Of a stretch of 64,000 bases of DNA, positions 26,031-33,622 are shown in pieces. The position numbers were made by a program, and so were the translations under genes. This stretch comes from Lingula anatina (Eukaryota; Animalia; Brachiopoda): the NCBI GenBank assembly GCA_051362555.1, contig CM120641.1:43654401-43718400 (forward strand), read 5' to 3'. The stretch's first letter is position 1. The number at the start of each line of letters is the position of its first letter. The notes beneath the pieces were generated by a model that had not been told where the DNA came from, ran no database searches, and was given only the letters and a program-made list of their open reading frames with translations.

Positions 26031-29000
26031 GCAAGTTGATAAGGAAAATGTCAATTTCCCAAAGTCAATTCCCATAACAAAAACAATTAAAGGGATAATA
26101 ACTCTCCGTTTCAGCCAAAAAATGAATTTTCCTGGAGTAAACAACAATTTTCCCATACTTACCAATGGTTAATGAATCCATTTTTACATTCAAAGTTAGT
26201 CCCTGGTTTTTTTCTAAAAAGGTTGGTTTTTTTGTTAAAATCTCTTAAGAGATTTTAACAGAGTATAGCCATCAATGGAGGTCACGTGGTCTAAATACAA
26301 GCTCAGATATCAGAAAAAATAGCTATAACTGCCGTTTTGTGGTAAAACAAAATATATTATATTTCTATGAGTTATTCACAATGTTTTTATTGTGAAATAT
26401 AGATATCATACGAAGAGTTATTATTCCTTTAAATAGTCTCACTGGCATAGTATATGGCCTATTTATTTACAGATCCTTTTTAAAAGGTGCTACGCGAAGT
26501 CCACCATTATTCTATACGTTAATGTATCTTGTAGAGAAACATTGGTAATCAAAATTCTAGCGCTATCTGTCGTATGATTTATGCCCCATATTGCGTCATT
26601 TTCTGCTGGATCCAGTCCAAGTAGTTGACAACTTTAGTGTACACACCTGGCTTTCTGCGACCTAAATAATACAAATATTTATTTTGAAAAATACATTTAT
26701 AATTACAAAATTATATATAATATGGTTAAATAGATAATATTATTTAAAAGACAAAAATAATATGTATATGTATGACTATTTATCCAATGCTATATATAAT
26801 ATAAATATATGCAAATTATCAAGCTCTCTCTATATAAACGGTATAAGTAACAGCTGGATCACCTACCTGCACAACCTTTGCCCCAAGACGTGATACCATG
26901 TAGCTCAAATTTCCCGCCTGACTTGCACACCAAGGGCCCACCACTGTCACCCTTTAAACATAAATTCAATGATCATGATTAAAAATTTGAAACTGAATTT
27001 AAGTTTTATGTTTTTTAGCTCTCTTTCTGTCTTTCTCTTTCGCGCGCACGCAATTTATTGTTTAGTGTTGATTTTTGCTTAATTTTTCAGTTAAATTTCA
27101 GTAATTGGTTTGTTTGCTATTCTGATGAAGTAAATTCCTCTCTTACAACCCCTCTTCAACCTTCAAAACGCAAATATGCGGTATCGTACTGGTATTTGTA
27201 TTTATGAAGATGTAAGTTTGAATACGTCACTAATACGCACACTTCTTGGTGCAAATATGTTCTTTTATGCGTCCTTTCCAATATGTTGAAAATGACTTCG
27301 TTCGCCCAAAGTTATGCGTGAAATTGATTTCACATACGATATTCATTCGCTTCTTTATAAGCTAGAGTGTAACGTGCTTCTACAAATTTCCCGCCTGCTT
27401 TTGAGAAGCACTTTGGTAAGGTTAGTTTCCGGTGGCACCGTACATATCTAATATGTTTTTTCATCTGCATTCAGATCTGATATTCTAAAAACAGCCAGCC
27501 CATTCCTCAAAAAACACAAGCACATGTGATTCAGAACACGCATTTACACACTAACACACACATATAAACTTCATCTACAGCACACATCCACAAGCATGTA
27601 CAACATGCGCTCATATTCACAAAAGCTCACACGGGTTGACGCACATGCACACACGCCAGCGCACATGACTTACCTGGCAAGCATCATGGCCGCCAGCCTC
27701 GTAACCAGCGCAGATCATATTGCCGGTGACGACACTGATATCCCTGTACCAGCTGTTACACGTTTGCCTTTTAACGATGGGCACCAATGCTTGCTTCAAC
27801 ACACCAGAGTTTCCAGTGCCTAAAGTACGCATACAGATATGAATAATTACACATGCGGGAAACTACGCATGTGGAAAAGACCACAAAAAGATTTGTGGAT
27901 TTGTATGAGACGTATATGGGTAATTAGAAAGACTAATTTGGATGTTTATGCAGGCAGATAAATACGCAGAAGTATGTGGATAATTTATCAATCGCATAAT
28001 CAAAGTATATACCTTCAGTATGTTATGATTTAAAAAACACATCTTAATAAAGGGCAGCATAATAGGAATATGAATCTACTAACACTAGATAGTAAACCCA
28101 AACTAGATGATTACTTGAATGAAAAGTTCCCGGACGTTTTAACAAAAGAACTTAAGCCCAAAACGTGTTGTTCACTTTTACAATCGAATATTTTGTCTTT
28201 GTCAAAACAGAACAAATCCACAGTACTCTACGTAAATAAAATAACCATGAGTCTAAATAGACGTTATTTCTTTCCCTTTATAAAACAGGAGCGATATCGC
28301 ATTTTAGTATACTACTGGTTATCGTGGGTCAAAGTTAATAATACAAACTTTAGTCAATATGTTAAGACCAACTTTGAGTCTACTTTTCTTGATTTAATAT
28401 AATTATATTACCGAGCACGATTCCCCAGCCTGACACGTAACAAAAAGTGTTATCAGCGGCCACGGTCGTGGGTAGGCAGACGGGATGGACACGGTCAGAG
28501 AGAGTGACCGGCTTGGCCAGCTTGAAGAGGGTGATGTCATTGTCCCAAATGGAGTGGTCGTAATTCTCATGACGGATCAGCGTCTGAACCTGGACAATCT
28601 CCTCGTCAGGGTCGTTGTACTTTCTGTGTTTTCCGGCAGAGATGGACCAGTACCTTGGACTCAAGTTCCTAAAATTTTACAATGAAATGATAACTACACT
28701 CAAGATATAACCCTTATTGATGATTATGGAACCGTATATAGATTGTAGTTGTGTTTTTATCCGTTGAAAATACTGTTTTGAAAATATTTTCCATCCGCGG
28801 GCAGCGATTGTTGTGTTTGTGCATGCAAGTGCGTCAAATGTATGTGTATCAGAATAAAAAAGAACTGCGTTGTGACAGACTGTTATACCAAAGAAAAAAA
28901 TAAGTGCTTACCGCTCTTCCAAACAATGAGCGGCAGTAGCGACCCACTGGTCAGAGATCAGACTTCCACCACAGATGTGCGAGCCTCTGTAACGCACGGA

Positions 29001-30493
29001 CACCTGCCATGGCCAACTGCCTGAAATGGCCTCGGTTCCACCCACAATACGGTTGTTTCCAAGCTTAGCGTCTATAGCAGGCGTGCCGCAGCTTCCTTTG
29101 TTTACCGTTAATGACGAAGAGCCCATATTTTGATGATGTTAACAATATGTTACCCAATGTTAAGTAACGCACAAATAGTCAAATGCCAACGCAATTTAAT
29201 GAAAAGAAAATCCGAATGTTTAAATGATGTCTATCTGACGTCGAATTTGCATTACCGTGTAAATTTCCTTTTTCGTTTTTCAACGTCTAATGAGTTTTAA
29301 ATTAAGTCAATGACTTTTAGTAAATTCAAATGAAGATCAAGGGGCAGCGAATGAAGCCGGGCACTAAATTTTGTATGGCGTTATAGGTGAAATGTTCCCG
29401 CCAAGCGGCCAAATTTCACTCTTCAAGTCGTTATAAAGTAATTTCATTTATACTTCCATTAGGAAGCTTATCTGTCTACTTACTTGGTGGATCCACGACA
29501 GTGTATCTGATAGAGAACCCACTTTCCACCTCCGAACGGTCACTGGTGAATGTCAGGTAGAGGGCGTTGCCTGTGGTCGAGATCTCGTTTGGAGTACCCT
29601 TCCCGCAGTAATTCTTGATGAGTCTGGCGCTGGTTGAACTGCCGTCGTAGACAGAGAGTTTGTCGAACCGGCAGCTGGTGCCACCCTCTTCTACAGCAAA
29701 GGCCAGGAAAGTGAGCTTGATGATCTTGCCGGCTGGGGCAGTGATTTTCCATTTACAGTTAGCACTGGTCAAAGAAGAAGCACGATATCAGCTGCCTGCA
29801 TTTACTTTTATATAAGTCCAGGTATATATATCAGTTTCGCAACTATGGTTTCATAAAAATAACTTGTACTCATGAAAGAAATATACAAGCATGGAAATAT
29901 GGAAGCATGGATCGCTATTCTGTTTTTATAGCCATAGTTCCATCTCATTTGATAGACTAGTTTCAGAACCAACCCGGGACAGCTTTTTAATTTTCAATTT
30001 TTCATACATCCCAACCTCCTGCGCATGAACGTTTGTCGCGCTACACACTTATGCTTTCTACGGAGCAACAAAATCTGGATGAGTGGATGCGCAGTAAATT
30101 TCATGCTAATTTGGCGCATAGGGTAAGAGTCCGATAAGCATGCATTTATGCAGATCTTAAAATAAACACGTAGACTAACGCCTGGACCATGCACCGGGTG
30201 TTCAGAGTACTCACTATCAACCTGATACTTACTTGTTGTTGTAATTACCAGTTCCGTAATTGAGAGATTTGATGAGTCCAGTTGTACCTGTGAGGTCACG
30301 GTTCCCGCCGCACCCAGACTGGATGGACGTGGGTCTGGCAGTAGTGATTACTAGTCAAGAAAATAGATAAACATTTTCATAAAATCAATATTTAATACCG
30401 ATTTGGAGGCACATTTTTATTGTGTGAAATCCACATATTTCTATTCTGTAATCTATCTATCATCATTTCAATAAAATTTCCGCGTTTTTTACA
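24601..30493. repeat. Segmental duplication copy A (paralogous to 36370-42718)
   Basis: Colinear similarity in exons, introns and flank, from ACTATCACACAATCTGAAAAA (24601/36370) to CGCGTTTTTTA (about 30491/42715), with several indels. Confidence 0.9.
26091..26428. mobile_element. TTAA-TSD MITE (Kolobok/piggyBac-like), copy 2
   Basis: TTAA|AGGGATAATAAC ... GTTATTATTCCT|TTAA. The paralogous site near 37706 is empty, with a single TTAA (AACAATTAAATAATCTCACTGG). Confidence 0.85.
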
Positions 30494-32294: not shown

Positions 32295-32325
<31 letters not shown>

Positions 32326-33622
32326 TTTGAAAAGAAACAGTGGGTCATACAACCTCCTCCCTCATAGCTTTGGATGTACCCATCCTTCTCTTTACTAAAA
32401 CAGAATAAGGACCAGAACGAAGCAATAACATGCCAATTACTCGTTACTGCACCTTACATGGTAAAGCAGAATTGCCCTCCTCTCCAATTTTATATTTGCT
32501 GAGTCATGCCAGGCAAAAAATCTTTTTTTTTTTTTTTTTTTTTTTTGCCTTTCACCCTGGCAAAATCCTGGATCTCTGGTATCAAAAATAAATTTTCTGT
32601 TAACCGAAGTTCTGAGTACTCAAGGTTTACTTCACCTAACCTCTTTTAAATAGATAAAAAAAGATAAACACGCGCCTAACACGTTAGAAGGTGTGTTTTC
32701 CAACACTTTTAGCAAGTTTGAAGTCTAGCTATCCAATCAGTTGCCGTACCTGAATCTTTTTTATGGAATAAAGTAACTATCTTGAAGTAAAAGAAAAACC
32801 CACCTTTGTATATAGATATGCTTTGCTATGCTATGCTCCTTAATAAATAATTTATTTATGGATATCTTATCTAAACCGGACTAACACCCCCATTTTATGG
32901 AATGACATCAATCGTACTATATATTGAAAGTTTCGTATACTTTCTTCGCCCCCCCCCCCCGCGCCATCCCCTTTCTTCCAAACAGTATAATATGAAGACC
33001 AAAATAAAATCAATTTTGAAGTAAAAGAAAAACCCTCCTTTGTACCCATAGATATGTTTTGCTATGCTATGCTCCTAAATAAATTTATTTATTTATTTTT
33101 TCTCTTTTTCACAAACGCACATACACACATACCAAGCAATTTGCATCCATTTTCTCTTTCCCAGATGTCCCTGTCCTCAATCAACCATGCCATCCACCTA
33201 CTGACAAACACACGCGCACACCCACACACACATTTCATACTATATATTTAAAGTTCCTTATTCTTTCTTCAACCCCCCCCCCCCCCCAACTCCACCTTTC
33301 TTCCACCTAGTATGATATAAAGGCCATACTCTACCTGCGTGTACTGTGGCGCCACACTGAAATGTTCCAATATGTTCCTGATAAACTCCAACTCCGACTT
33401 GAAATCTTCCTCGGAAACGCTGTTAGACTCGTCTACCAGAAATATAAGGTCCACCACCTCCCTCGCCCGCCTGGAGGCGTAGTTCATGCTTCCCAGCATC
33501 TGATTTCCAATACTCTGGACCGTGGATAGGCCATTGCACCTGCAGAGTGGCCGGTCTGAATAAAACAGGATGACTATTGCCGCTACCAAACGGAAACATT
33601 CGATGTTCATTTTAAGGGCCAT
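26579..33622 (-). CDS. Predicted chimeric secreted protease: signal peptide - vWA - EGF-like Cys-rich - CUB - trypsin-like serine protease, about 674 aa
   Basis: Twelve exons: 33622-33335, 32280-32089, 31723-31614, 31151-31036, 30672-30508, 30350-30233, 29764-29484, 29095-28912, 28668-28412, 27819-27674, 26951-26867, 26661-26579. All are GT-AG and phase-compatible, totalling 2025 nt with no internal stop. Motifs: v[29 protein letters not shown]; Cys-rich [56 protein letters not shown]. The domains are clear; joining the two halves in one transcript is inferred. Confidence 0.8.
31299..31341. repeat. (AAT)n microsatellite (similar tracts at 25992-26030 and 42475-42516)
   Basis: Read directly. 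Confidence 0.9.

Follow-up and report, generated by a model that had tools for sequence, protein, structure and literature searches.

A 64,000-nt stretch of the Lingula anatina genome (the window; it is free of N, and all coordinates below are positions within it) contains, at 33622-26579 on the minus strand, a chimeric gene in which five SVEP1-like exons are joined to a tandem copy of the 3′ half of a neighbouring protease gene. The chimeric gene is real at the level of the DNA. We favour, with a probability of about 0.72, the reading that it encodes a secreted trypsin-like zymogen whose vWA domain is predicted to serve in docking to surfaces. That the fusion is functional in some form, a complement-like convertase included, appears likely, and a lineage-restricted trypsin-like zymogen that arose by exon shuffling is our best reading of the available sequence. 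The chimera is known from one species label.

Structure of the chimeric gene and its predicted product

When recomputed from coordinates, the 12 exons proposed in an earlier note on this DNA join into a coding sequence of 2025 nt that specifies 674 aa and has a single terminal stop, with GT-AG borders at 11/11 introns. On the minus strand, exon 1 (33335-33622) encodes a hydrophobic leader and the start of the vWA domain with its DESNS motif, exon 2 (32089-32280) a part of this domain that includes a loop with S135 at the Thr position of the metal ion-dependent adhesion site (MIDAS), exon 3 (31614-31723) the D167-G168 pair, and exon 4 (31036-31151) the end of the domain. Exon 5 (30508-30672) encodes an EGF-like module with seven cysteines, and is the final exon derived from the SVEP1-like donor; its 5′ splice site is in phase 1. 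Following intron 5 (30351-30507), the CUB domain starts in exon 6 (30233-30350) and continues in exon 7 (29484-29764), while exon 8 (28912-29095) encodes C426, the R439/IVGG site and the catalytic His480, exon 9 (28412-28668) the catalytic Asp529, exon 10 (27674-27819) the S1 residue Asp616, exon 11 (26867-26951) the catalytic Ser622, and exon 12 (26579-26661) the C-terminus and stop.

Pfam recognises VWA (residues 58-229, E 8.8e-31), CUB (304-417, 6.6e-27) and Trypsin (440-665, 3.1e-73) in the full protein; the Cys-rich exon 5 alone gives hEGF at E 0.37 only. The MIDAS residues comprise DESNS at 64-68 (D64, S66 and S68), S135, which is Thr in the donor, and D167 of the DG at 167-168; the same DESNS is found in integrin alpha2. 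In the protease half, R439/IVGG (cleavage before I440), the triad H480/D529/S622, the S1 Asp D616 and the conserved disulfide cysteines are present, so that the retention of metal-binding, activation and catalytic motifs claimed earlier is borne out residue by residue. By its predicted triad, IVGG, S1 Asp and disulfides, the protein is an S1A trypsin-like mosaic protease. All 22 cysteines of the mature protein are pairable under a scheme taken from family knowledge, and the exon 5/6 joint falls between modules and leaves the cysteine set even.

Alignment-based structure prediction gave the vWA fold at a predicted local distance difference test (pLDDT) score of ~90 and residues 238-659 at <50; the folds of the EGF, CUB and protease parts are therefore assigned from sequence, single-sequence prediction having reached a pLDDT of only 32.9. 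The predicted vWA domain aligns with the I domain of the integrin CR3 (Z 25.2, root-mean-square deviation 2.0, 174 aligned residues), and the predicted structure of residues 40-290 matches a SVEP1 cluster with a template modelling score of 0.76 by query. Among solved structures, the protease is closest to plasminogen (E 2.7e-64), kallikrein and TMPRSS2.

The same joints occur in a 674-aa RefSeq protein of Lingula anatina, XP_013390347.1 ('CUB and peptidase domain-containing protein 2-like'), that differs from the window model at residues 316, 378 and 644. What had been announced as a new gene was therefore already modelled, although under a name that does not mark it as a chimera. Residue 644, encoded in exon 11, varies among the window, the RefSeq model and the parent protease: codon 644 (26879-26877), which follows SWG and corresponds to position 217 of chymotrypsin, a substrate-contact site, specifies Lys in the window sequence; at the same site, XP_013390347.1 has Asp and the parent Ile.

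Origin of the two halves

Working from protein records, and by way of the partial paralogue XP_013412868.1, we arrived at XP_013413646.1, a Lingula SVEP1-like protein of 972 aa with a vWA-Sushi-HYR-ephrin-receptor-like organisation. It is identical to the N-terminus of the chimera at 247/290 residues, leader included, and the match stops at the last complete codon of exon 5, which is to say at the exon 5/6 joint; exon 2 of the chimera has an in-frame gap of two codons relative to it. The SVEP1-like origin suggested earlier for the vWA and Cys-rich part is thus supported, and the search for a donor of the vWA exons succeeded. A second SVEP1-like Lingula protein, XP_013390582.1 (1500 aa), reaches ~59% over the whole query. 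XP_013413646.1 is the closest donor-family record found, and the actual source could be another paralogue. Both proteins resemble the chimera in leader, vWA domain, EGF-like module and cysteine pattern, but unlike it they possess further Cys-rich repeats, Sushi and HYR domains, together with EGF and pentraxin domains in the longer of the two, and no protease. Likewise, the N-terminal vWA domain and EGF-like module of SVEP1/polydom recur in the chimera whereas the domains downstream of them do not: Pfam detected none of the ephrin-receptor-like, Sushi, HYR, EGF or pentraxin domains behind its vWA-EGF part.

The protease half derives from the adjoining gene (37856-48677, minus strand), modelled here as 17 exons encoding 851 aa with the organisation leader-CUBx4-LDLa-trypsin. 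Window positions 24600-30491 are a copy of 36369-42715, the parent's 3′ half (~6 kb), and include a duplicated 3′ flank (24600-26578) that corresponds to the parent flank 36369-37855 at 78-92% identity in blocks; the duplication placing the chimera beside its parent is as the earlier note had it. Within intron 5, likeness to the parent intron (42715-42558) begins near 30491, ~16 nt past the 5′ splice site of exon 5, and around the joint identity to the parent has eroded to 75%. Both joined introns are in phase 1, which agrees with the earlier claim of exon shuffling between compatible phases. As the alignments show, the copied 3′ half of the parent and the likewise copied 5′ end of the donor meet inside phase-1 introns.

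The copy has been trimmed at two places. First, ~290 nt of the parent (42558-42268), a stretch that contained the usual acceptor together with 57 nt of coding sequence at the start of parent exon 10, are absent; exon 6 equals parent exon 10 without these 57 nt, and its acceptor AG derives from inside the parent's intron, now in frame against the exon interior. Second, the LDLa exon that follows the parent's counterpart of exon 7 (40917-41024, minus strand; 108 nt, phase 1-1) is missing from the chimera. The loss of the LDLa exon, the exon 6 acceptor made by deletion, and S135 are additions to the earlier description. The parent is a CUB-LDLa-trypsin mosaic S1A protease resembling ovochymase, ST14 and enteropeptidase, and the chimera shares its CUB domain, R/IVGG site, interchain cysteine, triad and S1 Asp, but differs from it in that vWA-EGF replaces three CUBs and LDLa and several surface loops are altered. 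The two proteases differ at 36 of 381 aligned residues. Nucleotide divergence is highest in exon 9 (25/257) and amounts to 1/118 in exon 6 and 0/83 in exon 12; exon 10 carries an in-frame 6-nt indel.

A 550-bp direct repeat (34340-34888), 94.6% like 25167-25718, is present in two copies 9.17 kb apart, one on either side of the chimeric gene. The upstream repeat carries a copy-specific segment and resembles the flank of the copy more closely than that of the parent (80%), which hints at a further, more recent round of duplication and at possible deletion alleles. Two palindromic elements similar to miniature inverted-repeat transposable elements and a dispersed repeat are located at 39049-39457, 46426-46679 and 26087-26432. 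One of the two palindromic elements lies within an intron of the parent and has no counterpart in the copy; 39049-39457 and 26087-26432 attract many RNA reads with loose ends.

Constraint on the coding sequence and evidence from RNA

Between copy and parent, nonsynonymous divergence (dN) is 0.052, synonymous divergence (dS) 0.110, dN/dS 0.47 and intron divergence 0.163. Their introns differ by 45 indels, 38 of them non-triplet, in 2204 aligned sites, whereas their exons differ by one, in frame. In a neutral simulation of 3000 runs, the whole gene remained intact in 0.13% with indels set to zero and in none with indels allowed, a result tempered by the fact that intron indel rates overstate exon rates; the protease half alone remained intact in 2.8% without indels. 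In addition, the donor-derived half (873 nt) stays open despite 15% residue divergence. An open frame in the face of 16% intron divergence and 38 non-triplet indels points to selection, and frame and splice sites have been kept beyond neutral expectation, as would follow from selective constraint since the fusion. As the copied half lacks a start and leader of its own and appears constrained, read-through from the vWA exons is implied. The gene had been described as apparently intact and young: the former is shown at the level of the DNA, where frame, splice sites and motifs are complete, and the latter is relative, the introns of copy and parent being 16% apart, ten times the reported heterozygosity.

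Changes in the protease spare the triad and the cysteines and are concentrated in specificity-setting surface loops (11/23, p 0.025, with an indel block counted once; otherwise 16/28), the loop limits following the chymotrypsin convention. Surface loops are more variable in any folded protease, and we thus read this clustering as constraint and not as positive selection. In the vWA-EGF part, 18 changes could be assigned to the chimera and 4 to the donor (p 0.004), with 17 unpolarised, and the branch lengths are 0.14 for the chimera and 0.044 for the donor. Clustering on the MIDAS face was 15/25 (p 1.5e-5) for loops delimited once the data had been seen. With surface loops altered in each half, the preferences for ligand and substrate may be new. 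We also considered dN/dS as proof of function and dropped it, since its value is no different from what neutrality in the copy and constraint in the parent would yield.

Several observations weigh against a functional fusion, and some of them would also suit a silent or decaying relic of segmental duplication, its frame open by chance and through gene conversion from the parent, from which no fusion protein is made. Four of nine raw RNA runs were examined, each at 6-30% depth; the 15 joints listed, of 72 in all, do not include the fusion joint 30350/30508. Splicing of vWA exons 3-4-5 is seen in runs X17 (41 and 94 reads) and X19 (69 and 179 reads), but in both the copy's protease exons are at depth <=0.08 and 13/17 residue-changing variants match the donor residue (among 40 variant rows listed, with 649 more), so that these vWA reads come from the donor. 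In X14, where exons 4-5 are spliced in 7 reads, the reads that fall in exon 1 or exon 5 are likewise of donor type. The pairwise dN/dS of 0.47 is also what a copy evolving neutrally next to a parent under constraint would give (47.6 expected, 43.5 seen), the chimera branch, three times that of the donor, fits relaxed constraint equally well, and MIDAS-face clustering drops to 9/29 (p 0.066; control 8/60) when the loops are defined by the model. Gene conversion from the parent could account for the cleanness of exons 6 and 12.

We nevertheless regard a relic as improbable. A gene intact in <=0.13% of neutral simulations, both exonic indels in frame, a donor-derived half still open at its level of residue divergence, and protease changes that settle in loops and leave catalytic residues and cysteines alone are all difficult to reconcile with decay. 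X14 contains chimera letters in 2/2 reads at two exon 2 sites, and on the expected strand it shows low depth over parent and copy, with copy exons 7-9 at ~1.3-2.2x. The RNA runs may stem from a diverged population; two populations named Lingula anatina differ by 0.0759, according to the accessible part of PMC13425148.

The acceptor of exon 6 is a cryptic site, unused in the parent model, which would suit a locus of two units, namely a truncated secreted vWA-EGF protein that ends in intron 5 and, separately, an orphan fragment of the protease, with the fusion a construct of annotation. Read by eye, the exon 5 frame continues without a stop through 38 codons of intron 5, which also holds an AATAAA. 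This arrangement seems quite unlikely, as it leaves seven intact protease exons with no start, leader or promoter of their own; the new acceptor is, moreover, in frame, and the RefSeq model, the support for which was not seen, has the same joint.

Relationship to complement proteases and other mosaic proteins

Phase-1 exon shuffling joins modules through introns of matching phase, with the donor contributing promoter and leader. In contrast to other exon-shuffled chimeras, here both parents, the joint and the two trimming deletions are still legible in one locus. Activation of factor B and C2 differs from IVGG activation downstream of a vWA domain, the mode predicted for the chimera. Factor B/C2 have the order CCP(1-7)-vWA-protease, and Brachiopoda possess their own factor B and C3, as far as the accessible parts of the sources go (PMC11312191 for both statements, PMC9835746 for the first). 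As in factor B/C2, a vWA domain with MIDAS and a trypsin domain occur in one secreted chain, but EGF-CUB (residues 236-439) lies between them in the chimera, no Sushi/CCP turned up in the full protein among 12 Pfam families (E <=1), and the ancestry is separate.

The chimera was also considered as a convergent convertase subunit that would bind C3b via its MIDAS and cleave C3. The intact MIDAS and the presence of C3 in Brachiopoda would suit this, and factor B clusters come first in a feature search (0.85-0.86, a lead only), followed by the C1r/C1s/MASP group (0.79-0.80). However, the vWA domain comes from a SVEP1-like gene, the solved structures closest to the protease are plasminogen, kallikrein and TMPRSS2, CCP domains are lacking, the activation site is unlike that of factor B, and Brachiopoda already possess a true factor B, again from the accessible part of PMC11312191; we consider a convertase very unlikely. 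The factor B-like logic that the earlier note had proposed is not sustained: with a canonical IVGG site and a predicted interchain disulfide, an ordinary two-chain mosaic S1A protease is to be expected. On sequence, the chimera is not a member of factor B/C2, two features that define that family being absent and its ancestry different.

C1r/C1s/MASP proteins share with the chimera EGF and CUB modules ahead of a two-chain trypsin-like protease. Their order is CUB-EGF-CUB-CCP-CCP, with no vWA domain. A spider protein, Argiope KAF8767223.1 (P0141; annotated as collagen VI-like), combines four vWA domains with trypsin and has no CCP and no EGF or CUB match; at ~24% identity, its vWA-trypsin pairing is presumably independent of the chimera. 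It was the one other protein with trypsin in a set of 159, largely multi-vWA proteins drawn from the best 150 of 3467 matches, in which CUB and trypsin occur together only in P0001. Word-based protein searches with exon 1 (1/147 candidates) and residues 56-290 (1/79 and 1/426) matched Lingula records only; as they missed the donor XP_013413646.1, they are weak evidence of absence. In the Atlas (clusters of >=50, with at most three families displayed), no cluster names vWA, CUB and trypsin together, and in the open literature, as distinct from subscription papers and InterPro/CDART, we found no description of the gene, its accessions or the domain order; the accessible part of PMC13121700 does not mention proteases. 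The vWA-EGF-CUB-trypsin order is thus apparently undescribed, in line, within these searches, with the earlier statement that it is no described family.

Independent records of the locus

An assembly artefact or haplotype join is extremely unlikely, for although no long read or contig across the joint was displayed and the reads examined were RNA only, the RefSeq record has the same fusion with three residue changes, implying that another haplotype carries it, locus words are found in four samples, the introns of copy and parent are 16% apart against a heterozygosity of 1.6% (PMC4595640, accessible part), and the joint is eroded. Seven DNA runs (4 samples, 3 studies) contain 0.60-0.91 of 754 sampled words of the locus, where 0.61 is expected for a different haplotype at 1.6% heterozygosity, and two further DNA rows contain 0.19; such word sharing does not prove adjacency, and one of the seven runs may be the window's own source. 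The run index listed no RNA run with these words, which carries no weight for or against expression. Misassembly is, on this sequence evidence, unlikely.

Neighbouring genes

Judged by eye from translated exons, the plus strand carries a tandem pair of glutathione S-transferase-like genes at 16270-19440 and 21865-24460; 44-aa Pfam queries from them, perhaps out of frame, gave no match. We take plus-strand exons at 53217-53560 and 57353-57631 to be EF-hand, calcyphosine-like, and two minus-strand exons at 60289-62328 to be MAM-domain-like.

Proposed mechanism and significance

A deletion of ~290 nt removed the old acceptor with 57 coding nt and brought an intronic AG into frame. Under the zymogen reading, the donor's promoter and leader, judging from family knowledge, would drive secretion. 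An upstream protease would cleave R439/I440, and a C426-C549 bond would tie the catalytic chain to the vWA-EGF-CUB chain. The MIDAS may bind, via Mg/Mn, an acidic residue on a ligand in the matrix or at the cell surface, while the CUB domain would place the substrate for cleavage after Arg/Lys, as Asp616 predicts. The targeting head of a tethered two-chain protease would in this way have been swapped from CUB repeats to vWA-EGF. Candidate settings are matrix or shell remodelling, defence and gametes, with matrix-targeted proteolysis as a first guess. A shell-matrix role by way of a SVEP1-like shell protein was considered and rejected: the product described in the accessible part of PMC4595640 has 8126 aa and is neither chimera nor donor.

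Phase-1 exon shuffling is the presumed origin of mosaic extracellular proteases, through events usually too old to be read. The process seen here is a known one and adds no new class of mechanism, but the origin of the gene is unusually legible: both parents, the joint (to ~16 nt), the new acceptor and the lost exon are visible, which allows a direct comparison of the chimera with its parent in expression, ligand and substrate. The locus also shows vWA paired with trypsin outside the factor B lineage. A bolder version, which we hold only tentatively, is that this is a new architecture soon after its birth, a MIDAS-docking head on a CUB-trypsin protease whose acceptor was rescued by deletion, with positive selection on the metal face and substrate loops, and possibly present in some animals and absent from others through the 550-bp repeats. 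If true, the locus would be a living replay of the first rise of vWA-protease mosaics such as factor B.

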